From NCBI GenBank assembly GCA_035628505.1, contig DASPJR010000104.1, positions 1,468-65,467 of the forward strand: DNA of 64,000 bases, written 5' to 3'. This DNA is from Planctomycetota bacterium (GTDB taxonomy: Bacteria > Planctomycetota > SZUA-567 > H5-PLA8). Below, one piece after another: positions 34,884 through 62,696 of this stretch (position 1 is the first letter of the stretch; each line of letters begins with the position of its first letter). The position numbers were made by a program, and so were the translations under genes. A model generated the notes under the pieces. It saw nothing but the letters and a program-made list of their open reading frames with translations, was not told the DNA's origin and did no database searches.

Positions 34884-35128
34884 AGATTCGAATCTCGAAA
34901 TCCGAATTTCGAAATCCGAAACAAACTCAAATTCCCGAATGTTCAAGGCTCGAAACTGCAGCGCCAATCGACTTGACCACCTAGTCATATCCGGTTCCTC
35001 CAATTCTCTCCGTGAGCTTCGTGTTCTCCGTGTCTCCGTGTTGAAGTCGTGAAGAGCCGGTGCAGTTTCGAACATTTGGTTTTCGAGTTTTGGATTTGTT
35101 TCGAGTTTCGAATTTCGTGCTTCGGATT
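34884..35128. repeat. MITE-like intergenic element, copy A (245 bp), with termini built of CGAAATC heptamers and a GTTTCGAACATT core
   Basis: Left end GATTCGAATCTCGAAATCCGAATTTCGAAATCCGAAACAAACTCAAA. Right end TTTGTTTCGAGTTTCGAATTTCGTGCTTCGGATTTT. Related copies at 42320, 43377, 45872 and 51096. Confidence 0.7.
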
Positions 35129-35333
35129 TTTTCCTGCCATTAGCAGCCTCATCTTTACGTGAACGTCGCAAGCGCGTTGCGTTGCTGAACAAAATTTCCG
35201 CAGTTTGCGTCAAAAATTTTTCAATTCGCACGCGGAAGTCTTGACAGAGCGCATACAAAACGAGTATTGAACGTCTTTCGCAAACTCGCTGCGCGGTCCG
35301 CAGAAAAATTGCGGCTGATTCTCCCAAGGAGAA

Positions 35334-36806
35334 ATGATGAAAGAAGGCATCAAGTTCGACGGCAAAGTATTGATCATCGGCCTTGGCGCGGTCTCGCGCT
35401 GCACGATTCCGCTGCTGATGAAGCACATCGATGCGCCGCCCGACCGCTTCATAATCCTTGATTTCGCCGACGTCGAAGCGCACGCGCGCCCCTTCAAGGA
35501 AATGGGCGCCAACTTCGTCAAGGACCGCGTGACGCGCGAGAACATGAGCGAGCTGCTCTCGAAGCATGTCGGCTCGGGCGATATCATCATCGACCTGGCG
35601 TGGAACATCGGCTGCACCGACATCCTGCAGTGGTGCTACGACCACAACGTCCGCTACCTGAACACCTCCGTCGAACTGTGGGACCCCTACGAAGGCGCAC
35701 CCAACCAGCCGCCGACCGAGCGCACGCTTTACGCGCGCCAGATGTCCATCCGTAAGATGGTGGCCTCCTGGAAACCCAAGCGCGGCGCAACCGCGGTGCT
35801 CGACCACGGCGCAAACCCCGGCCTCGTCTCGCACTTCACCAAGGCGGCGCTCGAAGACATCGCTCAGAAGTGGCTGTCCGAGCACAACGAACAGGGCGAG
35901 CGCCGGCAGCTGATCGAAGAATTCTACAAGAAGCGCATGTTCAACCGCCTCGCGCATCTGCTCGACGTCAAAGTCATCCACATCAGCGAGCGCGACACGC
36001 AGATCAGCAACGTTCCGAAAGAGCTGAACGAGTTCGTCAACACGTGGTCGATCGAAGGCTTCTACGAAGAAGGCATCGCGCCGGCCGAAATGGGCTGGGG
36101 CACGCACGAACGCACGCTGCCGCCGCGCGCGCAGATGCATCTTTCCGGCCCGATGAACCAGATATGCATCGCCAACATGGGCTGCCGAACATGGGTGCGC
36201 TCGTGGGTGCCGTGCGGTGAAATCGTCGGGATGGTGATCCGCCACGGCGAAGCGTTTTCGATTTCCGAAAACCTGACTGTGCGCGAGGAAGGCATGCCCG
36301 TCTACCGCCCGACGGTCCATTACGCCTACTGCCCCTGCGACGCCGCGATTGCCAGTCTGCATGAGCTGCAGATGCGCCATTACAATCTGCAGCCGAAGCT
36401 GCGCATCATGAACGATGAAATTACCGACGGCCGCGATGAACTGGGCTGCCTGCTGATGGGCCATGATTACAAGAGCTGGTGGATTGGCTCGAAGCTGGAT
36501 ATCCACGAAGCGCGCAAGCTGGTGCCCGGGCAGAACGCTACGACGCTGCAGGTAGCCTGCTCAGTCATGGCCGCGACACTGTGGATGATCAAGAATCCGA
36601 CGCAGGGTGTGTGCGTGCCTGACGATCTGCCGCACCGCGAAATTCTCGCGACCGCCAAGCCGTACCTGGGACCGTTCGTTTCTGAAGCCGTGGACTGGAC
36701 GCCGCTGAAGAACTGGCACAGCCCCTTCGAACGCTACGGCACGCAGCGCCCGCCCGACGAAGACGTGTGGCAGTTCAATACCTTCCTCGTCCGCGGCCTG
36801 GGTTGA
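35334..36806 (+). CDS. hss: homospermidine synthase
   Basis: Strong collinear similarity to bacterial homospermidine synthase: VNTWSIEGF, TVHYAYCPCD, PGQNATTLQV, AKPYLGPF, WQFNTFLVRG. 490 aa. Confidence 0.85.
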   Translation: MMKEGIKFDGKVLIIGLGAVSRCTIPLLMKHIDAPPDRFIILDFADVEAHARPFKEMGANFVKDRVTRENMSELLSKHVGSGDIIIDLAWNIGCTDILQWCYDHNVRYLNTSVELWDPYEGAPNQPPTERTLYARQMSIRKMVASWKPKRGATAVLDHGANPGLVSHFTKAALEDIAQKWLSEHNEQGERRQLIEEFYKKRMFNRLAHLLDVKVIHISERDTQISNVPKELNEFVNTWSIEGFYEEGIAPAEMGWGTHERTLPPRAQMHLSGPMNQICIANMGCRTWVRSWVPCGEIVGMVIRHGEAFSISENLTVREEGMPVYRPTVHYAYCPCDAAIASLHELQMRHYNLQPKLRIMNDEITDGRDELGCLLMGHDYKSWWIGSKLDIHEARKLVPGQNATTLQVACSVMAATLWMIKNPTQGVCVPDDLPHREILATAKPYLGPFVSEAVDWTPLKNWHSPFERYGTQRPPDEDVWQFNTFLVRGLG

Positions 36807-36858
36807 TTCTTTGTTCAGCGCAGCGGAGACGCTGGGAAACGGCATGAGTAAGAAACGT

Positions 36859-36887
36859 GAAGACTCCAGAATAGCGTTGGAGTCTTC
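36859..36887. terminator. bidirectional stem-loop (10-bp perfect stem GAAGACTCCA/TGGAGTCTTC) between convergent hss and SGNH-hydrolase genes
   Basis: Direct reading. Minus-strand side is followed by a U-rich tract (RC of AAGAAACG...). Confidence 0.5.
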
Positions 36888-36900
36888 GACAAACGCCGCA

Positions 36901-38193
36901 TTATTTGACAAGTTCACCGACCAGCAGGATTGCGCCGGGATAGAAGGCCGTTCCGTTGAAGCGTTCCGGCTTATCCATCTTCTCGTTGCGTTGCGACAGA
37001 ATCTTAGCCTTGTCAGGCTGCTCGGGATGAATCTCGATCTTCACCGAATGCTCGGCGTCCGGCAGGTCGCTGGCGATCAGTAGCGTCGCGAGCCGGTGAT
37101 AGGTGCAGAACGCATCAAAGCGCGCAACCGTGCGCGGGGGCTGATTGTCGAGCGTGATCGTGACCTGGCCGCAGTCGGGCCCGATGATGTCATAAATCGC
37201 GCAGCGCGTGCCCTTGAATTTGAACACAATGCTCTCCCCCGGCTGCGAACCCTTGTGCAGCGACGTCATGCGCTCTTTCCAGCGCTTGCCGAAGTCGTCC
37301 TTCTGCGGATCGAGAAAGACAAAGCCCTTTGAGAGCGTCGCATCGGTGATCGGCAGCAGCTTCGCATTCTCGTAATTGGCGGCGCTGAATGGCTGCGGCA
37401 GCGCGTGCGGGCCGCGCGTTTTGGAAGCCTCCTTGATCGCGGGAAGCGAACGCACGATCGCCTGCAGGTAGAGCTCGTGTCCGGTCTCGGAATACGGATG
37501 AACGCCGTCATTGGCAAAGACGACCTTGTCGCCGAGCGCTTTCTTTTCCTCATCAGTCTTCGGCAGCGGCGCCTTCCACAGCAGCTTGCCTTCCTTTGCC
37601 AACCGCGCGACTTCCATGGCCATGTGAATGGTCGGGATACCGTACGTGTCGGCGAGTTTTTCCATGGCGCTGGCAGAGCGCTGGAATTTTCCTTCGAGCA
37701 TCGGAGGGGAAAGCTGTTCCGTGAGCGTGTAGACGAAGCAGATGTCGCAGTTCGGCAGCGTCTTCCAGGTCTGGCGCACGATGCCTTCCATGCAGCGGTA
37801 AATCTGCTCAGGCGGCGCGCCGCCATCGTTCACCGCGAATTCAACGAAAAGCAGATCCGGGTTTTTATCGAGCACGTCCTGCTTGAGACGGAAGACGCCA
37901 AGGTCCGATCCGGTTCCACCGATAGCGGCGTTGATTTCTGAGAACTTCGCGTCGGGAAAAGCCGCTTTGAAGTGTGCCAGCGTCTTTGGCCGCCAGCCGT
38001 TCTGAGCCGTGATCGAGCCGCCAAAATAGGCGATCTTCACGTCCGCGCCCGCAGTGGCCGCCTTAGCGAAAAAATTTGGCAAGCCCGCGCGTGGCCTGCA
38101 CTCCTGCGCCGGAACGAGCGCGAGATCTTCGCCGGCGCATGTGGCCGGCAAAAAAACAAAAATTGAGAAGAAAAGGGAGGCGATCAGCCGCAT
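36901..38193 (-). CDS. SGNH/GDSL hydrolase family protein, secreted (likely carbohydrate esterase) with C-terminal beta domain
   Basis: Signal peptide. Block I FGGSIT (GDS-like Ser). Block III FVEFAVNDG. Block V DGVHP. Confidence 0.75.
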   Translation of the reverse strand: MRLIASLFFSIFVFLPATCAGEDLALVPAQECRPRAGLPNFFAKAATAGADVKIAYFGGSITAQNGWRPKTLAHFKAAFPDAKFSEINAAIGGTGSDLGVFRLKQDVLDKNPDLLFVEFAVNDGGAPPEQIYRCMEGIVRQTWKTLPNCDICFVYTLTEQLSPPMLEGKFQRSASAMEKLADTYGIPTIHMAMEVARLAKEGKLLWKAPLPKTDEEKKALGDKVVFANDGVHPYSETGHELYLQAIVRSLPAIKEASKTRGPHALPQPFSAANYENAKLLPITDATLSKGFVFLDPQKDDFGKRWKERMTSLHKGSQPGESIVFKFKGTRCAIYDIIGPDCGQVTITLDNQPPRTVARFDAFCTYHRLATLLIASDLPDAEHSVKIEIHPEQPDKAKILSQRNEKMDKPERFNGTAFYPGAILLVGELVK

Positions 38194-38291
38194 GACGAGA
38201 GCTCCTCATAGTTTGAATTGCCGGATCATACAGGGACTCGAGCAGAGGTCTATCGTTTGCGCAAATGCCCAGCGGGCCTGGAGGTGAAGAT

Positions 38292-38549
38292 ATGCATATC
38301 ATCGGATGGATTTTCTTCGGGTTAGTTGTCGGTGCGCTCGCGAAGCTCTTCATGCCCGGACGCGATCCGGGTGGGATTTTTGTGACGATGCTTCTGGGCA
38401 TCTCCGGATCACTGCTCGGCGGTTTTATCGGGCGGGCGATCGGCGGAGCTGGCACGCCGTCCGGCTGGATCGGCTCCATCGTCTGTGCGATGCTGCTGCT
38501 GCTTCTCTATAGATTGATTGTCCGCCCGCCGACGCACCGGCATCCGTAG
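38292..38549 (+). CDS. GlsB/YeaQ/YmgE family stress-response membrane protein
   Basis: MHIIGWIFFGLVVGALAKLFMPGRDPGG..LLGISGSLLGGFIGRAIG. Typical transglycosylase-associated family sequence. GGAGGTG RBS before ATG 38292. Confidence 0.8.
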   Translation: MHIIGWIFFGLVVGALAKLFMPGRDPGGIFVTMLLGISGSLLGGFIGRAIGGAGTPSGWIGSIVCAMLLLLLYRLIVRPPTHRHP

Positions 38550-38605
38550 TTCCCGGTGCTTGATGCGGAATCGAATCACTGTGGGCACTGCGAGCCCGAA
38601 CACTG

Positions 38606-38661
38606 CGGCTCCCTCTCCCCTTGCGGCCTGGCGGGAGAGGGATGGGGCGAGGGGTTAGCCG
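38606..38661. repeat. GC-rich palindromic element (CCCTCTCCCCTTGCGG...GGGAGAGGG...GAGGGGTTAGCCGC)
   Basis: Direct reading. Same motif family as 62463..62503, 62655..62696 and 10698..10720. Confidence 0.6.
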
Positions 38662-38833
38662 CAGCAGAAGTCAACGCGTTGCCAATCATCAGCCGCGCAA
38701 CAGATCGAGTCAGTTTGACTTGTCATGCCCGTCAGGTTGTCAGCCCTCTAAGGCCCTCTAACACCCTCAATGGCCCTCAAGAGCCCTTGCGTCCCAAAAT
38801 CAAAATTTCATCCGCCGTATATGGAAGGGTTCC

Positions 38834-38876
38834 CGATTGCGGATTGCGGATTTCGGATTGCGGATTGGCGATCGGG
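38834..38876. repeat. heptanucleotide tandem repeat (GATTGCG/GATTTCG)n, about 6 units
   Basis: cGATTGCGGATTGCGGATTTCGGATTGCGGATTGGCGATCGG. Unit is the reverse complement of the CGAAATC heptamer that builds the MITE termini. Confidence 0.7.
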
Positions 38877-38883
38877 CGTTTCA

Positions 38884-38975
38884 GTGCAGTTTAGTGCGAT
38901 TCGATGCAATTGAGTGCCATTCGGTGCAGTTGAGTGCGATTCAGGTAATTTGAATGCATTTCGATGCTTTTCGAC
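38884..38975. repeat. degenerate 21-bp tandem repeat, about 4.5 copies (consensus GCAGTTGAGTGCGATTCGGT-like)
   Basis: gcagtttagtgcgattcgat / gcaattgagtgccattcggt / gcagttgagtgcgattcagg / taatttgaatgcatttcgat / gcttttcga read directly. Confidence 0.6.
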
Positions 38976-39039
38976 AGCTAGACTTCCAAAATCAATATTT
39001 CATCCGTCGTATAGATGTAACGCGACTTGCCAGGTAGCC

Positions 39040-39107
39040 TCCCGCTGGGACCGCCGGCGTCCCGCTCGAACAGCCGGCCTCCCGCTGGGACCGCCGGCGT
39101 CCCGCGG
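39040..39107. repeat. two 28-bp direct repeats (CCTCCCGCTGGGACCGCCGGCGTCCCGC) separated by 12 bp
   Basis: Direct reading. Followed by inverted repeat CCGGTGGC..GCCACCGG and by a 13-bp inverted repeat GGACATTAGCCGG (39134) / CCGGCTAATGTCC (39310). Confidence 0.6.
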
Positions 39108-39777
39108 GCCCGTGCGCTCCGGAGGAGCGCCCGGACATTAGCCGGTGGCAAGCGCGCAGCGCGTGGCCACCGGAAATAATCGCCAATCATTGGTTCCGCG
39201 CCTTGGAAGGGCGCCGCAACAACGCGCGGTTCATCCGGCGCCCCGCTTGGGCGCTTGATCGTAAATCGACGCTGTATTCCGGGCGCGCTCGCTGCCGCTC
39301 GCTAGCCGCCCGGCTAATGTCCAGGCGCCTCTCCGAGGCGCCTAGTGGCGCGAACTTCAGTTCGCGAGTGTATGTAACGCCAATTTTCAATTCGCGAATC
39401 ACTTTACACTCACGGGTTTACTCGCCGCTTGAAAAGCGGCGTTACATCGCGGCCACAGCACCATCGAAATCAATCTCTGCGTACTCTGCGCTCTCTGCGC
39501 CTCTGCGTTGAAGTCGTTATTCCGTTTGGCACCCGTCAAAAAGGGGGACAAGTGTGACGAAGCGCCCGAGCCGCCGTTTCTTGACCGCTGGTCAATGATG
39601 AAAACGTTGCGCACGCAGTGGCTCAACGGGATGATTGAGGGTTTCGGATAACGCTCCGGACGAACGGCACCGGAGATCGCCGTAGCCATGACGAGCAGGC
39701 GGAAATCTGAAAAATGCCGTACGTTCTCTACGATGGCGTACAACAGTATGTACAACATGCATTGTGGAGGATACTTC

Positions 39778-42234
39778 ATGAACGTACTGCGTTGGGTTGC
39801 CGGGGTCGTTGTACTGGTAGCGGCTCCTCTATATGGAGGCGAGGAGCGGGTGCAGGTCAGTGGGCGCTACCCGCACCTGGTCATGTTCAACAAACAGGGC
39901 GAGTGCGGCACCGGCGCGGTGGTTGAATGGGCCGGTAAGCTCTGGGCAATCACCTACGCGCCGCACAAACCGGAAGGCTCGGACGATAAGCTCTACGAGA
40001 TCGACGCCGACCTCAATCAGGTGATCCGCAAAGAAAGCGTCGGCGGTACGCCCGCGGCGCGCATGATCCACAAGGAATCCAACCAGCTTCTGATCGGGCC
40101 GTACCTCATCGACGATCAGCGGAAAGTCCGCGTGATTCCGCCGTCAAAAATGTTTGGCCGCATCTCGGCCGTGACGCGGCACCTGACCGATCCGGCGAAC
40201 AAAGTTTATTACTTCGACATGGAAGGCCTCATCTACGAAGCCGACGTTAAGACGCTTGAAGTGAAACTGCTCTACAAGCGCGCGATTCCCGGCTGGCACG
40301 GCAAAGGCGCGTACACCGCACAGGGACACCTTGTCATCGCGAACAACGGAGAACACGAAGCGGCCAGCGTAAACAAGTTCAAACCGTTCGACTACCAGGT
40401 TCAGTTCGAAATGGGCGGTGAGAATGCCGGAGGCCTCGGTGACTGGGACGGCAAGACATGGAAGCTCGAAGAGCGCCGGCAGTTTACTGAAGTGACCGGT
40501 CCGGGCGGAATCTACGGCACACCCTCGCCCGAAGCGCCGCTCTGGTCTGTCGGATGGGACAAGCGCTCGCTGCTGCTGAAAGTCCTCGACGGATCCTGGC
40601 AAACGTACCGCGTGCCCAAGGCCGATTACTCGTATGATGGCACGCACGGCTGGCACACCGAGTGGCCGCGCATCCGCGAAGTGGTTCCTGAAAAAGACGG
40701 CAAAGCCGCGAAGCTGCTGATGAACATGCACGGCGGCTGGTTCGACTTCCCAAAGACGTTCAGCGCGAAAGACGCCTCGGGCCTGAAGCCGGTTGCGTCG
40801 TACCTGAAAATCACGGGCGACTTCGCGCCTTGGAAAGACAGCATCGTCTTCGCCTGCGACGATGTCGCGGCGTCGGGCTTTTCATCGAGCGGCTTCGATC
40901 CGCTCAACTCGCTGAACGGACAGTCGCAGTCGAACCTGTGGTTCTCGACGTGGGACAACCTGGCGCAGTGTGGACGCCCGGCCGGCTACGGTGGACCGTG
41001 GATGGGCGACAGCGTGAAAGCGAACGCGCCTTCGATTCCATATCTTTTCGCAGGCTACACGCAGCGCGTGCTGCATCTCTCGCACGAAACGGACGCGGAT
41101 GTTGCATTCACGATCGAAATTGACGCCGATGGCAAGGGTGCGTGGAAGGAACTCCAGAAGATCAGCGTGCCTGCGAAGGGTTACACCTTCCACATCTTTC
41201 CTGCCGACACGGCAGGCCAATGGGTTCGTCTCAAGACAGACCGTGACGCCGCGAACGTGAATGCGTACTTCCACTATGGGCCCGGCGGCGGAACGGCTGA
41301 AGACCGTTCGAAATTTGCGGCGCTGAGTGATGTCAGTGACGCTGCCCCGTGGATCAGCGCCGTCATGCGCGCCGAAGGGGAAGGCAAATGCAATCTCGCA
41401 GTGCTCGCCAATGCCGTGGATAACTCTGGCAACGCCAGCCCCGCCAGGTTCGTCCAGGTGGACGGCGAGATGAAAGCCGCGCCGATCGAAGCGGAGAGTA
41501 AGTCCGCCAAATTCCTGCAGGAAAAAGTCGTTGTGAAGAAACAGCAGTCAATCACGAGCGACGCTGCGTCCATCATCGTGGTCGAAGACAAAGTGCGCTA
41601 CCGACTGCCGAAGTCAAGCGATGCCTACGACAAGGAATTCGCTACGGGCTGGCCACGCACCGTCCGGGAGGTCGTCACAGAACGCTCGCTGATGAATGCC
41701 GGCGGCAGCTTTTATGTCCTCCCACGCACGAATTCGGGCGGCGTGGCGCACATCAAGCCAGTCTGCACGCACAACAAGCGCATCGTCGATTTCTGCTCCT
41801 GGCGCGGCCTGATGGTGATGAGCGGGACGCGAGCTGACGCGAAGGCGGACGGCCACTATTTCAGCTTCGGCGGCGACATGCCGGGGGGCCTCTGGTATGG
41901 CGACATTGATGATCTCTGGAAGATGGGCAAGCCGAAAGGACAGGGCGGGCCGTGGCTGGAAACGAACGTGAAAGCCAACCAGCCCAGCGATGCGTACCTG
42001 ATGACCGGCTACGAAAAAAAAAGCGTGAAGCTCAGCCACAATTCAACGCTCTTGGTGAAGATGACGCTCGAAGTTGATTTCCTCGCGACCGGCGAATGGA
42101 AGGTGTATCAGACGATTGAAGTGCCAGCGGGCCAGACGCTGACTCATGAATTCCCCGCAGGTTACTCCGCGCACTGGATCCGCGTGCGCGCCAACAGGGA
42201 TTGCCGAGCGACCGCGGCATTCACCTATGAATAA
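39778..42234 (+). CDS. hypothetical exported protein (818 aa) with internally duplicated ~100-aa C-terminal domain
   Basis: ATG 39778 with GGAGG RBS. Signal peptide MNVLRWVAGVVVLVAAPLYG. Two homologous segments GGPWMGDSVKANAPS...YFHY and GGPWLETNVKANQPS...FTYE. No family recognised. Confidence 0.65.
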   Translation: MNVLRWVAGVVVLVAAPLYGGEERVQVSGRYPHLVMFNKQGECGTGAVVEWAGKLWAITYAPHKPEGSDDKLYEIDADLNQVIRKESVGGTPAARMIHKESNQLLIGPYLIDDQRKVRVIPPSKMFGRISAVTRHLTDPANKVYYFDMEGLIYEADVKTLEVKLLYKRAIPGWHGKGAYTAQGHLVIANNGEHEAASVNKFKPFDYQVQFEMGGENAGGLGDWDGKTWKLEERRQFTEVTGPGGIYGTPSPEAPLWSVGWDKRSLLLKVLDGSWQTYRVPKADYSYDGTHGWHTEWPRIREVVPEKDGKAAKLLMNMHGGWFDFPKTFSAKDASGLKPVASYLKITGDFAPWKDSIVFACDDVAASGFSSSGFDPLNSLNGQSQSNLWFSTWDNLAQCGRPAGYGGPWMGDSVKANAPSIPYLFAGYTQRVLHLSHETDADVAFTIEIDADGKGAWKELQKISVPAKGYTFHIFPADTAGQWVRLKTDRDAANVNAYFHYGPGGGTAEDRSKFAALSDVSDAAPWISAVMRAEGEGKCNLAVLANAVDNSGNASPARFVQVDGEMKAAPIEAESKSAKFLQEKVVVKKQQSITSDAASIIVVEDKVRYRLPKSSDAYDKEFATGWPRTVREVVTERSLMNAGGSFYVLPRTNSGGVAHIKPVCTHNKRIVDFCSWRGLMVMSGTRADAKADGHYFSFGGDMPGGLWYGDIDDLWKMGKPKGQGGPWLETNVKANQPSDAYLMTGYEKKSVKLSHNSTLLVKMTLEVDFLATGEWKVYQTIEVPAGQTLTHEFPAGYSAHWIRVRANRDCRATAAFTYE

Positions 42235-42319
42235 CGGTAAGGGTTGAACCGCCAAGACGCCCAGGCTCCAAGGGGAAGTGGGCAAGTGACGGTGGGCAGG
42301 GGAACAGGAAAAAATAGAA

Positions 42320-42448
42320 GCACGAAATGCGAAGTTCGAATTCTGAATACCAAATGTTCGAAACAGCTCGGCGCTCACCCGTTTCGAACATTCCATCATT
42401 CGAACTTTTGAGCATTGTTTCGGATTTAGAAATTCGAATGTCGGATTT
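42320..42448. repeat. MITE-like element copy B (about 130 bp, inverted relative to A) with palindromic core AATGTTCGAAAC-N16-GTTTCGAACATT
   Basis: AAGCACGAAATGCGAAGTTCGAATTC...AATGTTCGAAACagctcggcgctcacccGTTTCGAACATT...TTGTTTCGGATTTAGAAATTCGAATGTCGGATTT. Confidence 0.7.
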
Positions 42449-42466
42449 AATGTTGGAGAGCAACGA

Positions 42467-43333
42467 TTGCTGAATCGCTCTTTACCGACTCCTTGCCGCC
42501 TCGGCGTCTTGGCGGTTCTAAGCAGTTCGCTTTTTGCCGGCGAGCGGCCGGAGCTCGGCGAGACGCTGAAGCCGTCGCGTGAAATCGTCTACAAGAAAGT
42601 CGGCGACCGCGAGCTGCGCCTGTTTGTATTCGAGCCCACTGGACACACGAGCAACGATGCGCGCCCGGCGCTGCTGGCGATTCACGGCGGTGGTTGGGCA
42701 GGCGGCGCGCCGAACACAGAGTTTTATCTCGCGAATGCGATGGCTGAGCGCGGCATGATCGGCTTCGCGCTCGAGTACCGCTTGATCAAAGGCAAAGCAT
42801 CGACCGTATTCGAATGCGTCAAAGACGGCCGCAGCGCCGTGCGCTACTTGCGCTCTCACGCCAAAGAACTCGGAATCGATCCGAATCGAATTGTCGTCGC
42901 TGGCGGTTCGGCTGGAGGTCATGTCGCCGCATCGACTGCGCTGCTCGACGAGATCAACGAAAGCAGCGACGATCTTGCGATCGACCCGCATCCAAACGTG
43001 CTGATTTTGCGCTACGCCGTGCTGGACACGTCGAAGGAAGGATATGGATCAGGAACGATCGGCGCGCGCTGGAAGGAGCTTTCGCCGCTGCATCACGTCC
43101 GCAAAAACATGCCGCCGGCACTGCTCTTTCACGGCACGGCCGACACTGTGACGCCCTATAAGAACGCGACAGATTTTCGCGATGCGATGATCGCCGCCGG
43201 AAACAAATGCGAGCTAATCACTGCTGAAGGCGCCACTCACGGCCATGTGCGGCTCGATCCCAAACGTGCCGCGCAGGCAGTGGTGGATACGGTGAAGTTC
43301 TTGAATGGGCTGGGATACAAGCTGAAGGGGTGA
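42467..43333 (+). CDS. alpha/beta hydrolase (esterase/lipase family), secreted
   Basis: HGGGW oxyanion-hole motif, GGSAGG nucleophile elbow, signal peptide. TTG start as given in the track. Confidence 0.75.
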   Translation: MLNRSLPTPCRLGVLAVLSSSLFAGERPELGETLKPSREIVYKKVGDRELRLFVFEPTGHTSNDARPALLAIHGGGWAGGAPNTEFYLANAMAERGMIGFALEYRLIKGKASTVFECVKDGRSAVRYLRSHAKELGIDPNRIVVAGGSAGGHVAASTALLDEINESSDDLAIDPHPNVLILRYAVLDTSKEGYGSGTIGARWKELSPLHHVRKNMPPALLFHGTADTVTPYKNATDFRDAMIAAGNKCELITAEGATHGHVRLDPKRAAQAVVDTVKFLNGLGYKLKG

Positions 43334-43376
43334 ATAACCGCTCCACAGAAGAGACATCGAGAGTAGTAAGGACCTC

Positions 43377-43516
43377 GAAGTTCCAAATTCCGAAATTTGA
43401 AACAAGTTCAAATGACCGAAAGACAAATGTTCGAAACGGATGGCATCCACCCGTTTCGAACATTCGTCATTTGAGATTTTGAATTTGTTTCGGATTTCGA
43501 AATTCGGATTTCGAGT
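43377..43516. repeat. MITE-like element copy C (about 140 bp) with core AATGTTCGAAAC-N15-GTTTCGAACATT
   Basis: GAAGTTCCAAATTCCGAAATTTGAAACAAG...AAATGTTCGAAACggatggcatccacccGTTTCGAACATTC...TTTGTTTCGGATTTCGAAATTCGGATTTCGAG. Abuts the stop codon of the PQQ gene. Confidence 0.7.
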
Positions 43517-44752
43517 TTACTTCGCTTTCACGTCGTAACACAGCAGCACGTCCTGGTCGCGAATGTAAAGTTTTCCGCCGGCGATGACCGGATGCGCCCA
43601 GCTGTGGGCTTTGCTGCGATCGGGCGGATCGAAGCGGCCTTTCTCTTTGTACGCTGCCGGCGTGGCTTCGACGAGGGCGATGCTGCCGGGGCCGCTTTCG
43701 CCGCGCATGTACAGGTGGCCGTCGGCGTAGGCGATGGCGCCCTTGCCGACACCTTTATCGCTCCAGGCAACGTTGCCCGTCTTCAGTTCCATGCACGTCC
43801 AGCCGCCGGAGTCGTTGAAGCCGTAAACGTGATCGCCGACTCGGATGACGCCGCCATGATGATTCTTCATCGACTTGTTCGCGTAAATCTGGTTTGTGCT
43901 GAACGCGCCGTTCTCAGCTTTCACTGCGAATGCATTGCAGCCGACGCCATAGCCGCTCGTGACGTAGACGAGGCCTTCGTGATAAATTGGCGTGCTGATC
44001 ACGGCGGTCGCACCAGCGCGGTCAGCGCGCCAGAGCAGCTTTCCATCCTTCGCACCGATGCCCGCCACACTCTGGCCGGTCAGCTGCAGGTACTGCGGCA
44101 CGCCGCCGATTTCGGCCGGCACAACCGAGGAATACGCCGCTGCATCCTTATAATCAGCCGTGCGCCAGACCAGTTCGCCGGTGGTCTTCTTCAGTGCAAG
44201 CACCGTGCCCTTCGGTCCGCCTGGCGTGAGAATAACGAGTTCGCCGTCAATCAGCGGCGATTCGCTATAACCCCAGCCCGACATCATTTTGCCGCCAAAG
44301 TCTTTTTCCATGTGCTTGCGCCAGACTTCGGCGCCGGTTTTTCCGTGGACACAGACGATTTCGCCGTACTGGCTCATGCCGATGACCACATCGCCCGAAA
44401 TCGCCGGCGTGCAGCGCGTGCCTGGATAACCGCCGCCGCCACCCACGCCGCCAACCTTCGCCGTCCACAGCACTTTACCGCTGAGATCGAGTGCGATGAT
44501 GCAGCTGTTGCCCTGCACGTCGCCCATCGTGAAGACTTTGCCGCCCGAAACAGAGACGCTCGAAAAGCCCGCGCCAACTCCCGTTGCGCGCCACGCCAGC
44601 GGCGGCCCCGCAGCCGGCCACTGTTTGAGCAAGCCTGTTTCGGTCGAGAGTCCGTCGCGCTTGGGGCCGCGCCACTGCGGCCAGTCGCCTTCTCCACCAA
44701 ACGCGGAGATGTTAATCAGAACCAGGAGAAGAAGTGTGCGAAGCGCGGCCAT
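43517..44752 (-). CDS. PQQ-like beta-propeller repeat protein, secreted
   Basis: Repeated ..G.VY..S.DG.L.ALD..TGK..W.. blades. Start set at ATG 44752 (signal peptide MAALRTLLLLVLINISAFG, GGAG RBS). Confidence 0.75.
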   Translation of the reverse strand: MAALRTLLLLVLINISAFGGEGDWPQWRGPKRDGLSTETGLLKQWPAAGPPLAWRATGVGAGFSSVSVSGGKVFTMGDVQGNSCIIALDLSGKVLWTAKVGGVGGGGGYPGTRCTPAISGDVVIGMSQYGEIVCVHGKTGAEVWRKHMEKDFGGKMMSGWGYSESPLIDGELVILTPGGPKGTVLALKKTTGELVWRTADYKDAAAYSSVVPAEIGGVPQYLQLTGQSVAGIGAKDGKLLWRADRAGATAVISTPIYHEGLVYVTSGYGVGCNAFAVKAENGAFSTNQIYANKSMKNHHGGVIRVGDHVYGFNDSGGWTCMELKTGNVAWSDKGVGKGAIAYADGHLYMRGESGPGSIALVEATPAAYKEKGRFDPPDRSKAHSWAHPVIAGGKLYIRDQDVLLCYDVKAK

Positions 44753-44991
44753 GCAATGTTCTCCGAAAGGGTGAGCGCTAAAGGCGCTCTGAGGCATTTT
44801 CGCCAGACGCAGGTTTCTGACAAGCACGTTCAACGCGGCAAGATGTGTCATCAGGTGTGGTCCTCTGATAATACAAGACTCACCTTGTGAGGGATTTACT
44901 GCGCCCGGAGTTAAAAATCAGGATGACCCTGCCCGGTCTTGCCCCTGCGGCGGAGAGGGTGTAAACTCCTGACGCTCTTGAAATTGCATTT

Positions 44992-45867
44992 ATGTGGGAA
45001 CAGGCCATGCGGCTTCGACTTTTATCTTTGTCTCTGCTCGCGCTGGCGTGCGTGTTTTTTACGCCGGGCTGCGAGGAAGCGCGCGGTCTGGACCCGCGCG
45101 AGCGCGCCGCCATGACCGTTGTGTTCGAAGAAGCGCGTGCGCTTGACGAGCAGGGCCGCTACCACGAAGCGCTCGTGCGCTATGAAACAGTGCTCGCGCG
45201 GCACCCGCAGTTCATGTCCACTCGTCTGAACGCGGCGATGGCGGCGTACGATGCGGGCGCGTACGAAAAAGCGCGCGGCCATTTCGAAGTGCTCCACAAG
45301 TACGGGCCGGGCGACTGGTTCGTAATTCGTAAACTTATCCAGTGCTGCGAGCGCCTCAACGACAAGGAAGGCGTCGAAAGCTACCGCGCGAAATTAGAAA
45401 AGCTGCGCCAGCAGGCGGCTGGCAGCGTGGTGCTCAAGCGCTATGAAGGTCTCACTCGTGATTACATCCCGGTTGGATCGATGCATCTGATCGGCTATGA
45501 ATTCTTCGAGCCCAAAAAACACGGGCGGCTCTGGTTTTTCCGGCTCGAAGACAAGAACAAAGCGCCCGTGACTGCATTCCTGCTCGAAGCCACGCCCTTT
45601 CACGACAACAGCGGCAGACGTTTGTTCAGCCTGACCGAAGCGACCAACGGGTGGATGCGCATCTGGCACGTCGGCGTTGAAGGCCGCGAGTACGCGTGGA
45701 CGCGCGATGTTGTGCTCAGCTGTCTGCAGGGCAAGCGCCAGCCGCTGGTGGTCAAGCCGCTGCCCGCCGATTACGAAGTGCTCGCTGCGCCGGACTCAGC
45801 TCGGATCCCAAGTGAAGGAAAAGAACCACCGTCAGAGAAAGCGCCGATAGACGCAGAGAAAAAGTAA
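44992..45867 (+). CDS. hypothetical lipoprotein with TPR-like N-terminal region
   Basis: Signal peptide plus lipobox-like (LALACVFFTPGC). No specific family recognised. Confidence 0.55.
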   Translation: MWEQAMRLRLLSLSLLALACVFFTPGCEEARGLDPRERAAMTVVFEEARALDEQGRYHEALVRYETVLARHPQFMSTRLNAAMAAYDAGAYEKARGHFEVLHKYGPGDWFVIRKLIQCCERLNDKEGVESYRAKLEKLRQQAAGSVVLKRYEGLTRDYIPVGSMHLIGYEFFEPKKHGRLWFFRLEDKNKAPVTAFLLEATPFHDNSGRRLFSLTEATNGWMRIWHVGVEGREYAWTRDVVLSCLQGKRQPLVVKPLPADYEVLAAPDSARIPSEGKEPPSEKAPIDAEKK

Positions 45868-45871
45868 ATAC

Positions 45872-46003
45872 AGAATCCGAATTTCGAAACTCGAAACAAA
45901 TTCAGATGTTCAAAAGAATTAAGGATTAAAACGTCGCGCGCAATTGTTTCGAACTTTCCAACCTTGGAGCTTTAAATTTGTTTCGGATTTCGTGCTTCGG
46001 ATT
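45872..46003. repeat. MITE-like element copy D (about 130 bp)
   Basis: CAGAATCCGAATTTCGAAACTCGAAACAAATTCAGATGTTCAAAAG...TTGTTTCGAACTTTCC...AAATTTGTTTCGGATTTCGTGCTTCGGATT. Its right terminus contains the TTG start (45978) of the downstream gene. Confidence 0.7.
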
Positions 46004-47651
46004 AAGAATCTGCGCGCTCTGCGTGCTCGCCTCTGCCTGCGCGTACGGCGGCGATGCCGCGCCGGCGACCCCTGATCCCGTCGCGATTGCCGTTAAGAAA
46101 GCGCGTGAATTCTTCAAAGAACGCAAGTTCATCGAAGCGCTCGATCAGTTCGCGCTCGCTTTGACGCTCAAGCCGGAGGACCGCGACACGGCTTTCATGG
46201 CGGGCGTCGCTGCGTACTGGTCGCGGCAGCCCGCGCGCGCAATGGAGTTCTGGAACGAACTGCTGGATACGGCGCCGCGGAACAGCCGCGAAGAGTGGAA
46301 GCTTGAAACGCACCGGATCATGGCGCTGTACCAGCTCAATCAGCACGATGCCGCCGAAGCAGTTGCCGAACGCATTTACGATCTGCACAAGCGGTTCATG
46401 GTGCAGCGCGCGAGCGGCACTGCGGGCGCTGACGACAGTGTGTTCAGCGACGGCTTTGTACGCGAGCACATCTTTCTCACCGAACGCGTCACGGAGCAGG
46501 ACAGAAATGGCGCAGGCGTAAAAGACATGCAGCGCGTGCTGCGCGTGGGCTGCTGGGAGGTCTTCGACGACCGCAAAGAAGCGCAGAATATTTTTGCGTT
46601 CCCGGTCACCGTTCACAGTGCCAAAGACGACCCGCTGATCAAGCGGCTGGTTGTCGCCGTGAGCGTGTTGCCGGGCGGCGAAGCGGGCTATGTGCTGACG
46701 GAAGAAGGCGGAGAGGATCGCACCGTCTACAAGCGCTGGCTGCAGCGCCCGCCTTACGCGGAAGTGCGCACGCTCGTCCTGCAGGCCTTGAAAGGTAAAG
46801 CTGTACCACTGGCCCAAACGAAGAAGGCGCCCGCGCCGGCCGCTGCGGAATCGAAGACTCCAGTTGCATCTGGAAAGGTCTCTGCGCCTCAGTCGGAAGC
46901 ACCATCAGATGTGCGGCAGGCGGAAGCTCCGCCAGCTGCGCCGCAGCCGGAAGCGCCGAAGGAGCGCCTGTTCACGCAGGCCGAGCTCGGTTCGGCTGCC
47001 AAAGTAATGGCGCTGGGTCTTGAAACGCAAGCGGCGCAGATCCTCACGCTTGCCGGACGCTTGCGCGAAGTCGATCTGGACATCACGAAGCTGACGCGGC
47101 TTTCGCTGAGCGATCCGCAATTGGCCGAGCGATACCTCGAAGAAATGAAGGCAAAGTCTCCCTACGCGCAGGAAGACGCGGCGGAGCTGGTGGACTTTAT
47201 CGCGAAAGCAAAGAGTGAACATCTTGCGGCGGCGATGGAAAAGCTGCCGAAAATCGGCGCGCGCACGCCGTATCTCGACTACGTCCTGCTCACCGCGCTG
47301 AACACGCGCGGCAAGGACATGTACGCGTCGCTTCTTAAGGAATGTCAGAGCAGCGGCGACTTCATGGTGCGGCATACTGCATCGCTGATGCTGAGCCGCA
47401 GCGGCGACAAAAAAGCGATCGGCCATCTGGTCAGGGAGCTCACCGCGGCCGATGAGCTGGCCAGCAATATCGTTCAGGACTCTCTGGTCGAGCTGGTCGG
47501 GAACGACATCGCCGAACCGCCGCCAGGCAGCGGGCCGGCTCTGAAAAAGTGGAAGAGCGATGTTGCGCAGTGGTGGAATCAGAATGAACGCAAACTGGCG
47601 TTTAACGAGCAGCGGCGCGAGAGCGATCCGTATTGGAAGACACAGAAATAG
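45978..47651 (+). CDS. hypothetical secreted TPR/HEAT-repeat protein
   Basis: 557-aa ORF with N-terminal TPR-like and C-terminal HEAT-like repeats (LLKECQSSGDFMVRHTASLMLSRSGDKKAIGHLV). The only plausible start providing a signal peptide is TTG 45978, inside MITE copy D. Confidence 0.6.
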   Translation: MFRISCFGLRICALCVLASACAYGGDAAPATPDPVAIAVKKAREFFKERKFIEALDQFALALTLKPEDRDTAFMAGVAAYWSRQPARAMEFWNELLDTAPRNSREEWKLETHRIMALYQLNQHDAAEAVAERIYDLHKRFMVQRASGTAGADDSVFSDGFVREHIFLTERVTEQDRNGAGVKDMQRVLRVGCWEVFDDRKEAQNIFAFPVTVHSAKDDPLIKRLVVAVSVLPGGEAGYVLTEEGGEDRTVYKRWLQRPPYAEVRTLVLQALKGKAVPLAQTKKAPAPAAAESKTPVASGKVSAPQSEAPSDVRQAEAPPAAPQPEAPKERLFTQAELGSAAKVMALGLETQAAQILTLAGRLREVDLDITKLTRLSLSDPQLAERYLEEMKAKSPYAQEDAAELVDFIAKAKSEHLAAAMEKLPKIGARTPYLDYVLLTALNTRGKDMYASLLKECQSSGDFMVRHTASLMLSRSGDKKAIGHLVRELTAADELASNIVQDSLVELVGNDIAEPPPGSGPALKKWKSDVAQWWNQNERKLAFNEQRRESDPYWKTQK

Positions 47652-47787
47652 GCGGCCATGTTCTGGCCGCTGACGAGAAGGCGTTTTTTACAATTTGCAT
47701 TATCAATTTGTGTTTCATTGCGTATGACTCAAGGGCTGGCGGCAAAAATTTTCTGATCGTGCGGCCTTGAACACTGAGGATTTACGA

Positions 47788-48678
47788 ATGGCCGGACCCG
47801 TTTTTGAGACGAATCTTCCCGGACTGAAGCTGCTCGCGCGCGGCAAAGTGCGCGACGTTTACGATCTTGGCGATAAGCTGCTGATCGTCAGCACCGACCG
47901 GCTCAGCGCGTTTGACTGCGTGCTGCCGACGCCGATTCCAGACAAGGGCCGCGTGTTGAACGGGCTTTCGCGCTTCTGGTTCAATTTCCTCGCCGAAAAT
48001 CCGCGCAATCATCTGATCACCACCGATGTCGCACAGATGGGCAGCGGACTGGAAAAGCACCGCGATATTCTTGAAGGCCGCTCGATGCTGGCCGTGAAAG
48101 CTGAAGTATTCCCCGTCGAATGCGTTGTGCGCGGCTACCTGATGGGCTCGGGCTGGAAAGAGTACCAGGAAAAAGGCAGCGTCTGCGGCATTCAGCTCCC
48201 GCGTGGCCTGAAGAATGGATCGAAGCTCGAGCAGCCCATCTTTACTCCCGCGACGAAGGCGAAGACCGGCCACGACGAAAACATTTCGTTTGAGCGCGCT
48301 GCCGAAATTATCGGCCAGTCGAACGCCGATAAATTGAAAGAACTGTCGATCAGCATCTACACGCGCGCCGCCGAACACGCGCTGACGCGTAACATCATCA
48401 TCGCTGACACAAAATTCGAATTCGGCCTGCACAACGGCCAGATCATCCTCGTCGACGAAGTCCTCACGCCGGACAGCTCGCGTTTCTGGCCGCACGAGAA
48501 GTGGACACCCGGACAGACGCAGCTGAGCTTCGACAAGCAGTTTGTGCGAGACTACCTGGAAGGCATCGGCTGGAACAAGCAACCGCCGGCGCCGCCGCTG
48601 CCGGAAACTGTGGTCATGAAAACCCGCGAGAAATACGTAGCCGCGTACAAGCAGATCACGGGTAGAGAAGACTTCTAG
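47788..48678 (+). CDS. purC: phosphoribosylaminoimidazole-succinocarboxamide synthase (SAICAR synthetase)
   Basis: GKVRDVYDLGDKLLIVSTDRLSAFD and full-length PurC similarity. ATG 47788 with GAGGA RBS (the track start at 47767 is TTG). Confidence 0.9.
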   Translation: MAGPVFETNLPGLKLLARGKVRDVYDLGDKLLIVSTDRLSAFDCVLPTPIPDKGRVLNGLSRFWFNFLAENPRNHLITTDVAQMGSGLEKHRDILEGRSMLAVKAEVFPVECVVRGYLMGSGWKEYQEKGSVCGIQLPRGLKNGSKLEQPIFTPATKAKTGHDENISFERAAEIIGQSNADKLKELSISIYTRAAEHALTRNIIIADTKFEFGLHNGQIILVDEVLTPDSSRFWPHEKWTPGQTQLSFDKQFVRDYLEGIGWNKQPPAPPLPETVVMKTREKYVAAYKQITGREDF

Positions 48679-48705
48679 GCTCTCTTTATTGACGCCACGT
48701 CACTC

Positions 48706-49530
48706 TCACTTGTGTTCTGGAAAGTCGTTCTCGTAGCGCTTTACTAATTGATCGATCTCCGCAGGAACAACATAGATTTTTCCGCGGATTTTTTTCGTCT
48801 CTCCAGGCTTCAGGCCGCCGATGCGAAAATCAGAATGAATGCAGGTGTAGACGCCCTGAAAAAGTTCCTGATAGGGCTCCCAGGCCGTCGCGATCACCAT
48901 CTTTTCGTCAGCTGAGTAAACACCCATCAGGCCGTTGCTAGGCACCAGCGAACTCAGCGGGCGGGGGTTGACGTCGTTTCGATCCACATGTTTCGGGCAA
49001 TAAACCTGGCCAGGAATATAACGCGCTTTCTCTGCCCAGGGCTGGGTGGGCAGGCGCGCCAGTTTGCCATCGAGGAAGATGAAACATTTCCGGATGTAGC
49101 TGAGCTTGTCGCCGCCAGTGAAACCTTGAACGTGAATGCAGGGCTGAACCCAATGCACATTCGACGCTTCCTGCGTGGGGTTGTGAGCGGTCAGTTTGAA
49201 TGCGACTTCATCTTTTCCCGCGGTGATTTCGTGATCGACGATGACGCCGTCTTTCACATTGCAGCGAAGTTTGATCTTTTTGCCGTCGGATGACGCTTCT
49301 ATTAACTCAGTTTTGTGGCCGATTGTCGTTTCAGACCAATCGCGATCGGTCGAGCCCGGCCGGCAGTAGGCTTCAAGGTAGCGGATCTTGATCGGGCCAC
49401 CGGGAATTTTGCTCCCCTTGATGAAGAGCAAGTCTTTTTCCCACGTAATCGAGAGGCCGTCGGTGACCGAAGGTTCCTCCGCCAGAACGGCGAAACAAAG
49501 GCACAGGCAAAGAAGTGGCAGGTAACGCAT
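48706..49530 (-). CDS. hypothetical exported protein
   Basis: Start set at ATG 49530 (GGAGG RBS, signal peptide MRYLPLLCLCLCFAVLA). No family recognised. Confidence 0.55.
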   Translation of the reverse strand: MRYLPLLCLCLCFAVLAEEPSVTDGLSITWEKDLLFIKGSKIPGGPIKIRYLEAYCRPGSTDRDWSETTIGHKTELIEASSDGKKIKLRCNVKDGVIVDHEITAGKDEVAFKLTAHNPTQEASNVHWVQPCIHVQGFTGGDKLSYIRKCFIFLDGKLARLPTQPWAEKARYIPGQVYCPKHVDRNDVNPRPLSSLVPSNGLMGVYSADEKMVIATAWEPYQELFQGVYTCIHSDFRIGGLKPGETKKIRGKIYVVPAEIDQLVKRYENDFPEHK

Positions 49531-49635
49531 TTGAAAACCTCCGTTACTTCTGATTACTGTCTCACCCGTTCTAACGTTGAGAAAAAAGCGCGGGCATTGC
49601 TGCCCGCGCTTTTCGTTCATCTTGATGCGTGATTC

Positions 49636-50874
<1,239 letters not shown>

Positions 50875-51095
50875 TATTTTCGCTCCTTTCAGAGCTTAAC
50901 GGGTACGGGCGGCTGGGACCGCCGGCGTCTCGCCGGCTTTTGTCTCAAAACCGCCAAAGGAGAAAAAACAACCACTCGCCCGGACCTCCCCCATCCGGGC
51001 AAGCACACCTGCAACAAGTAGAGCGGCAAGAGGATAGGAGATCGCTCTGTCAAATCAAGTAGCTAACGGCTGTGGCGGGTGATGGGTCACGAACG

Positions 51096-51232
51096 GCAAA
51101 TTCGAAATCCCAAATTCGAAATCCGAAACAAATTCAAAGGACCGAAATTCGAAGGCTCAAAACTCGTGGTTTTGAACAGTTGAATTTTGAAATTCGAATT
51201 TGTTTCGAATTTCGTGCTTCGGATTTCGAATT
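51096..51232. repeat. MITE-like element copy E (about 137 bp)
   Basis: GCAAATTCGAAATCCCAAATTCGAAATCCGAAACAAATTCAAAGG...GTTTTGAACAG...TTTGTTTCGAATTTCGTGCTTCGGATTTCGAATTT. Confidence 0.7.
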
Positions 51233-51245
51233 TATCCGTTACGCC

Positions 51246-51294
51246 CTCGTCACTCGTCACTCGTCACTCGTCACTCGTCACTCGTCACTCGTCA
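51246..51294. repeat. perfect heptanucleotide microsatellite (CTCGTCA)x7
   Basis: ctcgtcactcgtcactcgtcactcgtcactcgtcactcgtcactcgtca read directly, immediately 3' of the stop of the isomerase gene (51301) and adjacent to MITE copy E. Confidence 0.9.
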
Positions 51295-51300
51295 CGAGTT

Positions 51301-62434: not shown

Positions 62435-62462
62435 TTTCGTGTCTGTTGTATTCCCCTCCCCT

Positions 62463-62696
62463 TGCGGGAGGGGGTAGGGGGAGGGGTTAGCCGTGAGTAT
62501 CACTGAGCGTGCGGCGCAAACCGACAGCGACTGAATTTTTCATTTCACAGTTGTCGTTTGTCATTTCTCATTGAACCGCTTCTGTGGCAGAGGGGTTCAC
62601 GAAAGAATTAGTTCTGCTTGTGGTACGCGCTCGGTTGAAGAACAGCTAACCCCTCCCTCTAACTCCCTCCCGCAGGGGGAGGGAGGACCGCGCGTC
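62463..62696. repeat. GC-rich foldback element: hairpin CCCCTCCCC-TTGC-GGGAGGGGG + GTAGGGGGAGGGGTTAGC at left, inverted partner GCTAACCCCTCCCTCTAAC + CTCCCTCCC-GCA-GGGGGAGGGAGG at right, about 150-bp AT-richer core
   Basis: Direct reading. Arms are reverse complements (GGGAGGGGTTAGC / GCTAACCCCTCCC). Sits between the DUF1553 and DUF1501 genes. Confidence 0.6.

Follow-up and report, generated by a model that had tools for sequence, protein, structure and literature searches.

Five heptamer-armed palindromes in a Planctomycetota contig, probable gene-less members of a cross-phylum element family associated with PF05635

The window analysed here is a stretch of 64,000 nucleotides of contig DASPJR010000104.1 from a Planctomycetota bacterium (assembly GCA_035628505.1). 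Its intergenic spacers hold exactly five AT-rich elements of 129-246 bp, designated A to E, with a GC content of 0.36-0.46 against about 0.60 in the flanks and the contig. An earlier note, made from the letters alone, had listed five copies at gene boundaries, with copy B inverted relative to A, in a window free of transposases. All five were found where it had placed them and all follow the 3' end of some gene; the inversion of B was confirmed, as its AAGCACG-type arm lies on the left and that of A, D and E on the right. The flanking genes are ordinary, encoding a Ser/Thr kinase, a saccharopine dehydrogenase, an alpha/beta hydrolase, a PQQ_2 beta-propeller, a TPR protein, MetK and a xylose-isomerase-like TIM barrel. 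Among the called genes and larger open reading frames (ORFs) of the window that were compared with Pfam, a comparison that did not take in every ORF, none was found to encode a transposase, an integrase or a PF05635 protein. The five elements are clustered in 16.4 kb (34884-51233) of the window, for which uniform placement gives p of about 0.02. The elements and their immediate surroundings are as follows.

34884-35129, no strand assigned: element A, 246 bp, detected by the arm hidden Markov model (HMM), predicted RNA fold -84.5 kcal/mol, z = -3.9; the stop codon (34847) of the Ser/Thr kinase gene precedes it by 37-43 nt, and the saccharopine dehydrogenase gene follows after about 205 nt.
34884-34962: left arm of A, five CG-heptamers, core CGAAACAA at 34917-34924.
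34963-35058: enlarged loop of A.
35007-35050, plus strand: octamer array in the loop of A, TCTCCGTG-type units followed by GTTGAAGTCGT; a related copy lies at 39474-39517.
35059-35129: right arm of A, core TTGTTTCG at 35096-35103, AAGCACG-type module.
42320-42448, no strand assigned: element B, 129 bp, left arm degenerate with the AAGCACG module kept and the core lost, inner repeat AATGTTCGAAAC-N16-GTTTCGAACATT exact, right-arm core TTGTTTCG at 42415-42422; it follows the stop of an 848-aa gene by 85 nt, and after a further 18 nt or so comes the longest ORF of the alpha/beta-hydrolase gene.
43377-43518, no strand assigned: element C, 142 bp, whose arms of 62 nt pair better than those of any other copy (79% complementary across a 3-nt gap), cores at 43398-43405 (left, TGAAACAA) and 43485-43492 (right), predicted folds -71 and -73 kcal/mol with z about -11 to -12; the PQQ_2 gene (43517-44851, minus strand), which is convergent, has its TAA stop completed by the last two bases of C.
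45866-46003, no strand assigned: element D, 138 bp, cores at 45892-45899 (left) and 45978-45985 (right); the TPR gene (44992-45867) ends in a TAA stop whose AA is formed by the first two bases of D.
51096-51233, no strand assigned: element E, 138 bp, cores at 51124-51131 and 51200-51207, predicted folds -57 and -66 kcal/mol; in the 3' untranslated region of the AP_endonuc_2 (xylose-isomerase-like TIM barrel) gene (stop 51301, on the minus strand), and upstream both of metK and of a terminator-like hairpin (51005-50973, minus strand).

Each element is an imperfect palindrome, and its arms consist of about nine heptamers (AAnnnCG, then AAnnnCA) around the core CGAAACAA / TTGTTTCG, an invariant core that became visible on alignment with other genomes. 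The CG dinucleotide recurs in the arms with a period of 7 nt, and the lag-7 autocorrelation of the arms is 0.47-0.57 compared with a background of 0.25. The terminal motif TTTGTTTCGRATTTCG, allowing at most 3 mismatches, occurred 12 times in the window against 1.2 expected, and none of 100 shuffled sequences reached 12. An arm HMM trained solely on unrelated genomes recovered precisely the five elements in the 64 kb with ten arms, the weakest match being the left arm of B (E = 0.0066); no element was detected in a further 8.4 kb of the same contig. The arm HMM and the motif counts thus bear out a non-coding repeat family with inverted, heptamer-built termini in intergenic DNA, as it had first been described. 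The palindromic inner core described with it held in part: the inner repeat AATGTTCGAAAC / GTTTCGAACATT is exact in both arms of B and C and, for A, on the right side alone. D and E carry degenerate versions, and by itself the repeat stays near chance (10 matches against 5.4 expected). Seven perfect tandem copies of CTCGTCA (51246-51295) adjoin element E, between it and the stop of the TIM-barrel gene, and other heptamer arrays adjoin arms in two loci of other genomes, L054 (GGACAGA) and L073 (TTGAGAT).

One exact-pattern scan with AATTTGTTTCGRATTTCG over 185,579 species genomes, one genome per species, gave at least 120 matching loci. Almost all of them hold the same element, and 105 complete two-armed elements follow the same consensus, with a median length of 147 nt (range 89-498). 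The phylum label of each locus is taken from the title of its record, and in at least one case, a bin called 'Alcaligenaceae', the label seems unreliable. Among the loci listed, the labels include Planctomycetota (Pirellulales, Gemmataceae, Phycisphaerae and Kuenenia), Desulfobacterota, many lineages of Patescibacteria or the candidate phyla radiation (CPR), Aminicenantes, Omnitrophota, Verrucomicrobiota, Kiritimatiellia, Nitrospirota, Calditrichota and Binatia. Genuine arms were also present in 19 of the 39 IMG/VR contigs that carry the family 16-mer. BLASTN of element C against plasmid and phage collections gave no match, to which the low-complexity filter may contribute.

The ends of the 105 complete elements are sharp (AAAT(C/T)CGAA ... 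TTCG(G/A)ATTT), and their two flanks are mutually unrelated. From the outside inwards, an arm comprises four AAnnnCG heptamers, an invariant AAACAAA and about four nnnCAAA heptamers, followed by a variable loop. The alphabet of outer heptamers is small, with AAATCCG at about 36%, AAATTCG at 20%, AAGCACG at 11% and AATATCG at 9%. The arms show a polarity, AATATCG tending to occur in one arm (49 arms) and AAGCACG in the other (62 arms), with both in only 6 arms. A fixed orientation of this polarity relative to transcription was considered and rejected, the counts being random at 17:16; a constant association of the TAT/GCA arm type with the direction of the ORF was likewise rejected, as full-length copies are inconsistent in this respect. 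Canonical arms, such as 34884-34962, are free of stop codons in all three forward frames, so naive ORF callers read through them, and 13 of the 105 elements lie 'inside' spurious ORFs.

The window copies and the fetched relatives are in every case flanked on both sides by genes for proteins or tRNAs. In 12 of 88 contexts at a 3' end, the stop codon is formed by a T and the element's first AA, and several more copies abut the stop. At one orthologous junction the element is present in one genome and absent from the other: in L044 the element and about 34 nt separate two genes, and in L131 the orthologous genes overlap by ATGA. In the closest relative of the window contig (JGI, L161; about 80% protein identity), the 848-aa and PQQ_2 genes are convergent and 110 nt apart, and element B, the hydrolase gene and element C are all missing. 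The nusG-rplK spacer of three CPR-type genomes (L071:7230-7330, L123:6530-6660, L127:5797-5896) holds three different heptamer-like palindromes, one belonging to the CGAAATC family described here and the two others not; this spacer may be an insertion hot spot, or one that needs a hairpin.

When all ORFs in the 120 loci (8 kb each) were clustered, the sole protein cluster recurring inside elements was an ORF of about 120 aa between the arms of copies of 467-550 bp. These ORF-bearing copies are labelled as Gemmataceae, Patescibacteria, a Saccharibacteria chromosome and the 'Alcaligenaceae' bin. The inner ORF (119-122 aa) matches PF05635 (23S_rRNA_IVP) with E between 3e-11 and 5e-14, and the TIGR02436 model, 'four helix bundle protein', with E between 4e-17 and 1e-20. 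PDB 2RLD, a structure of five chains, matches the query with E 1.6e-13; the S23p proteins, as this family is called, gave no PADLOC or PHROGs match. The anatomy of the gene-bearing form is a left core, 0-30 nt and an ATG, and, after the stop, about 30 nt of inner heptamers and the right arm. Protein searches returned at least 8000 clusters at E < 1e-5, and the best 120 of them were 64-76% identical, many on contigs of about 1 kb. Six homologues were picked without regard to DNA repeats, and all six were flanked by at least one arm. Gene orders at the gene-bearing loci were as follows.

Phycisphaerales metagenome-assembled genome (MAG): leuA-[miniature]-leuC-[arm-S23p-arm]-leuD.
Second genome: leuC-[S23p]-leuD.
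Chaperone gene context: groES-groEL-[S23p]-dnaJ-grpE.
Daviesbacteria: YebC-[arm-S23p-DHFR-arm]-RuvC.
Two further homologue loci, one with TA instead of CG in each heptamer.

The S23p ORF was co-oriented with both neighbours in all eight contexts with called genes, and in two more by our own ORF calls. In ten loci of this subfamily and in two of a Bacteroides type, the gene lies inside the arms and in the sense of the host transcript; the window copies carry no ORF. The S23p proteins are 58-80% identical to one another in a star-like pattern that is independent of the host phylum label, and two genomes with 83% identity between their LeuC proteins share only 68% in S23p. In the Daviesbacteria locus (L189:2953-3952), the left arm and the S23p gene are followed by a DHFR (dihydrofolate reductase) gene and then a right-arm fragment, so that the DHFR gene may be cargo inside the element. 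In a variant represented by L193-L198, TA replaces nearly every heptamer CG in both arms (AAATCCT, AAATTCT, core CTAAACAA), and its S23p protein is 69% identical to the query.

Another PF05635 subfamily shows the same architecture with another heptamer. In the Bacteroides relatives of PDB 2RLD the gene lies in the orders araD-[S23p]-araA and aminotransferase-[S23p]-DAHP synthase, sharing the orientation of the operon, and the arms are 31 nt long, 94-97% complementary and made of four AATTGAC / GTCAATT heptamers. The protein family is known from the intervening sequences (IVSs) of rRNA genes. The 23S IVS of Coxiella has been described as a selfish element whose inverted-repeat stem is cut by RNase III, and it holds an S23p ORF preceded by tandem GACAGAT heptamers (PMC4990558). 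Such ORF-containing 23S IVSs occur in Leptospira, Coxiella burnetii, Brucella and Xanthomonas (PMC4990558), the Xanthomonas S23p reportedly forms a homopentameric toroid (cited in PMC4990558), and in CPR bacteria IVP ORFs were found in insertions of both 16S and 23S rRNA genes (PMC11270868). The likeness to the present family extends to the inverted-repeat stem around an S23p ORF of about 120 aa in the sense of the host transcript, with neither an evident promoter nor a good ribosome-binding site, to the tandem heptamers by the ORF and to a sporadic distribution that suggests horizontal transfer. On the other hand, the window copies lack an ORF, lie between protein-coding genes and not in rRNA helices 25/45, and have CGAAAT(C/T) as their heptamer, and their hairpins are predicted, whereas excision in Coxiella is experimental (PMC4990558).

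Taken together, we consider it probable that the five elements, as miniatures without an ORF, belong to a cross-phylum, palindromic family of IVS-type hairpins associated with PF05635, selfish and borne on host transcripts. Their arms are those of the gene-bearing form of about 470-550 bp, and they are its ORF-less version. The family has sharp ends and no target duplication and occurs in transcribed spacers, often directly from the stop codon, and its gene-bearing form follows the orientation of the operon; the family is probably selfish. We propose that such insertions would depend on host read-through transcription and not on a promoter of their own, and that both arms would pair in the transcript into a long imperfect hairpin that, by analogy with Coxiella, RNase III could cut. 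Excision of this kind would make insertions in operon spacers and in rRNA tolerable. The heptamer arrays may serve as cis sites for the pentameric S23p, in which case the miniatures would depend on protein supplied in trans, and insertion into DNA would proceed by a non-DDE route that leaves no duplication. An array of protein sites fits better than a selected stem because covariation is lacking and each of the three PF05635 groups compared uses a different heptamer.

Several observations weigh against this interpretation. Identical S23p proteins were always found in a single genomic context, so current mobility is hypothetical. The similarity of copies within a MAG is close to that between MAGs (0.750 and 0.723 in the outer arms, 0.558 and 0.459 in the inner arms), which points to old, constrained copies and not to a recent burst, and a divergence within genomes that approaches the one across phylum labels gives no sign of recent transposition. 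The occupied and empty orthologous sites come from different species, so the exact boundaries of the insertion are unreadable. A PF05635 gene is absent from the window and from the next 8.4 kb, so that a trans-acting partner in the host genome is hypothetical. No CGAAATC-family copy was seen inside an rRNA gene, and rRNA probes found no rRNA genes in the 1.6 Mb of loci, so that the link to IVSs rests on protein homology, architecture and the literature. All 120 genome loci listed (L041-L160) are MAGs, with no isolate, which could be an effect of scan order or a genuine absence from cultured strains.

The pairing of the arms weighs in the same direction. The window copies are predicted to fold with -36 to -84 kcal/mol (z -2.4 to -11.8), both strands alike. 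Real elements nevertheless fold no better (-48.4 kcal/mol) than chimeras of two elements (-50.9 kcal/mol), and the variable triplets of the outer arms match less within an element (0.15-0.26) than between elements (0.34-0.43 per position, p = 1e-7), part of this mismatch being the AATATCG/AAGCACG polarity. RNAalifold retains only 11 invariant pairs. As RNAalifold, position-wise complementarity and chimera folding show no element-specific pairing, a selected RNA hairpin was rejected as a candidate; this weakens a step in which the RNA stem itself is selected, and recognition of each arm by a protein fits better.

The earlier note had read the family as miniature inverted-repeat transposable elements (MITEs) or a REP-like family, or else as a shared regulatory or terminator module. 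A classical MITE, that is, an internally deleted derivative of an insertion sequence with a DDE transposase, mobilised in trans via its terminal inverted repeats, would agree with small, AT-rich, multicopy, intergenic elements that have inverted termini and sharp ends, and with size variants produced by internal insertions, as in element A. The expected target-site duplications were not seen, however: in 79 elements direct matches between the flanks were no commoner than in shuffled flank pairs, and none was found at the five window copies. Moreover, no transposase recurs in the 8-kb loci around the 120 copies listed, as none was found in the window, the termini are shuffled heptamer modules with no single fixed inverted repeat, and the copies are old, diverged and far from near-identical. 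The full-length relative with matching termini that the MITE reading implied does exist, and it encodes a PF05635 protein (four-helix bundle) and not a transposase. The classical MITE reading is therefore largely refuted, and we regard it as very improbable. We accord just as little credence to REP/REPIN-like elements spread by a RAYT (Y1 HUH) or to an IS200/IS605-type element acting on single-stranded DNA hairpins. REP families are lineage-specific and co-inherited with their RAYT. This mechanism would account for the missing duplication, for the palindromic, intergenic nature of the copies and for the systematic difference between the arms, which is expected if mismatches mark the strand. 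However, the elements measure 130-150 bp, against 20-40 nt for a REP palindrome, and are AT-rich without a GTAG/CGTC head, so that length, composition and termini all differ from those of REP/REPIN and no short GC-rich palindrome is found. The same sequence is also spread across labelled phyla, unlike REP families, no Y1 transposase gene recurs near the 120 copies listed, and neighbouring window copies differ in orientation (A+, B-, D+, E+). The insertion sites showed neither a target motif nor a target hairpin. Insertion into pre-existing terminator hairpins was also considered and rejected, the complementarity of the flanks being no greater than that of shuffled pairs.

Two further explanations concern host functions. 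The elements might be RNA hairpins that terminate transcription, block 3' exonucleases or set mRNA stability, as proposed for REP/ERIC, and that are kept by selection. The constant location of copies in spacers that are transcribed or at 3' ends, the strong hairpins predicted for both strands and the nusG-rplK spacer filled with three different palindromes in three CPR-type genomes would all agree with this. However, no covariation was found beyond the 11 invariant pairs and chimeras fold equally well, and no Rfam family reached its gathering threshold in the window; a search by E-value gave only sub-threshold miRNA-precursor hairpins (E 0.01-0.16). The terminator module of the earlier note did not hold up either, since none of the 36 terminator-like sites (a GC-rich stem and a T run) in 34-52 kb coincides with any element, and E lies upstream of a separate terminator-like hairpin. 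The empty orthologous site, with overlapping and presumably translationally coupled genes, is also difficult to reconcile with a needed hairpin, and we judge a beneficial RNA improbable. We rate slightly lower the probability that the elements are host regulatory DNA, in which paired heptamer arrays bind a global DNA-binding or nucleoid protein. The sequence pattern of each arm is conserved and the pairing between arms is not, the set of permitted heptamers is limited, a function independent of orientation would fit the 17:16 polarity, and there is a precedent in the sites of G. metallireducens assigned to IHF/HU (PMC2700814). Nevertheless, the same sequence occurs under phylum labels with very different regulators, including reduced CPR genomes, the copies follow stop codons or sit in tight operon spacers and not at promoters, their arms are physically linked with one specific small gene that lies between them, and their presence or absence varies at orthologous sites. 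Confinement to one operon type, which the earlier note thought would favour a regulator-binding site, was not observed, as the copies occupy varied operon contexts.

Aklujkar et al. (2009) reported in G. metallireducens paired arrays on opposite strands, each of 3-5 tandem repeats of 7-8 nt, in classes 1-3 (PMC2700814). Their repeats include GTTGCTYN, TCTCCGTS[Y] and five MTYCTGA about 100 nt apart, for example at proB-proA, and the paired arrays were interpreted as IHF/HU sites (PMC2700814). The window elements fit this description, being opposed tandem 7-nt arrays that are intergenic and multicopy. Both have two opposed arrays of 3-5 tandem 7-8-nt repeats at about 80-110 nt or variable spacing, a small alphabet of modules (ATTCTGA / CTCCTGA in Geobacter), a location in intergenic or operon spacers and tens of copies per genome; the Geobacter sites differ in their repeat sequences and in the IHF/HU reading, and that paper draws no link to PF05635 or IVSs.

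ERIC/IRU, Correia/NEMIS and other MITE-like palindromes of bacteria are similar in being imperfectly palindromic, about 100-150 bp long and located in intergenic DNA that is transcribed, with size variants by internal insertion; those elements are co-transcribed with their neighbours and are possible substrates of RNase III or RNase E. They are restricted to one genus or family, and Correia elements generate TA duplications. To our knowledge, none of these families has a full-length form bearing PF05635 or arms built of heptamers. Avd, the accessory variability determinant of diversity-generating retroelements, is a pentamer whose four-helix bundles form a basic barrel, and it binds both nucleic acid and an enzyme partner. 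The elements described here differ from that system in that no reverse transcriptase or template/variable repeats were seen beside them. Avd belongs to the same protein family as PF05635 (PMC10053308).

More tentatively, and with clearly less confidence than we place in the kinship of the five window copies, heptamer-armed palindromes with or without PF05635 might constitute one large cross-phylum selfish class, each family having its own heptamer, namely CGAAATC in the present one, AATTGAC in Bacteroides and GACAGAT in the IVS of Coxiella. In such a class, a pentamer would read about five tandem heptamers per arm, the element would reside in host transcripts and RNase III would remove it from RNA, insertion would leave no duplication, and rRNA IVSs would be those copies that had inserted into rRNA genes. 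Further members would probably be the arrays of YTYCTGR and TCTCCGTS in Geobacter, together with their look-alikes in the window. Pieces of this are already known, namely the rRNA IVSs with an S23p ORF, the Geobacter paired repeats and the ERIC-like palindromes. In the searchable literature we found no description of the CGAAATC family, of its cross-phylum spread, or of a general association of PF05635 with subfamily-specific heptamer arms in operon spacers.

Other repeats of the window resemble the Geobacter sequences. A heptamer palindrome at 27604-27700, (GTTTCTG)x4 ... (CAGAAAC)x3, has 33-nt arms that are 85% complementary and lies 6 nt past the stop of a 603-aa gene (27707, minus strand), upstream of a 73-aa ORF; its GTTTCTG heptamer fits the MTYCTGA 'class 3' sites of G. 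metallireducens. The octamer arrays at 35007-35050 and 39474-39517 (TCTCCGTG / TCTCTGCG, each followed by GTTGAAGTCGT) match the TCTCCGTS[Y] 'class 2' consensus (PMC2700814), and the array within the loop of A looks like half of a site from another tandem-repeat family, nested there. Palindromes of CCCTC / GAGGG type at 38600-38660 and 62452-62684 resemble the 'class 4' multicopy sequences of G. metallireducens, which occur in many genomes (PMC2700814).

The remaining repeats are of other kinds. Five CGGATTG heptamers and then about ten 10-nt repeats (ATTNRGTGCR) occupy 38797-39017, bracketed by a direct repeat of about 30 nt, CCAAAATCAA(A/T)ATTTCATCCG(C/T)CGTATA; this block lies in a 1.5-kb intergenic region that measures about 265 nt in the relative L161. 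A GC-rich 29-nt unit, GCCTCCCGCTGGGACCGCCGGCGTCCCGC, occurs three times at 20-nt spacing in 39037-39105, with a fourth copy at 50905-50933 upstream of metK, and 39114-39145 / 39310-39341 form an inverted repeat of 32 nt. Within a 1486-aa Reprolysin / PKD / Big_7 gene, positions 22524-23857 hold four 405-nt repeats in tandem (62-74% identity), which are probably domain repeats.

PF05635 / TIGR02436 is a very large family with solved structures, and it has no known role outside diversity-generating retroelements. The origin of rRNA IVSs has been an open question since about 1990. If PF05635 proteins are in general the cargo of heptamer-armed hairpins within operons, and ORF-less miniatures of these hairpins are scattered through intergenic DNA in many phyla, the IVS problem would gain a testable model, consisting of heptamer arrays as cis sites, a pentameric trans factor and removal by RNase III, and the so-called binding sites of global regulators would gain a different explanation. 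Annotators would gain a recognisable class of repeats that breaks metagenome assemblies and creates spurious ORFs. These findings link a protein family that has long lacked an explanation with a DNA element that is widespread and probably selfish.

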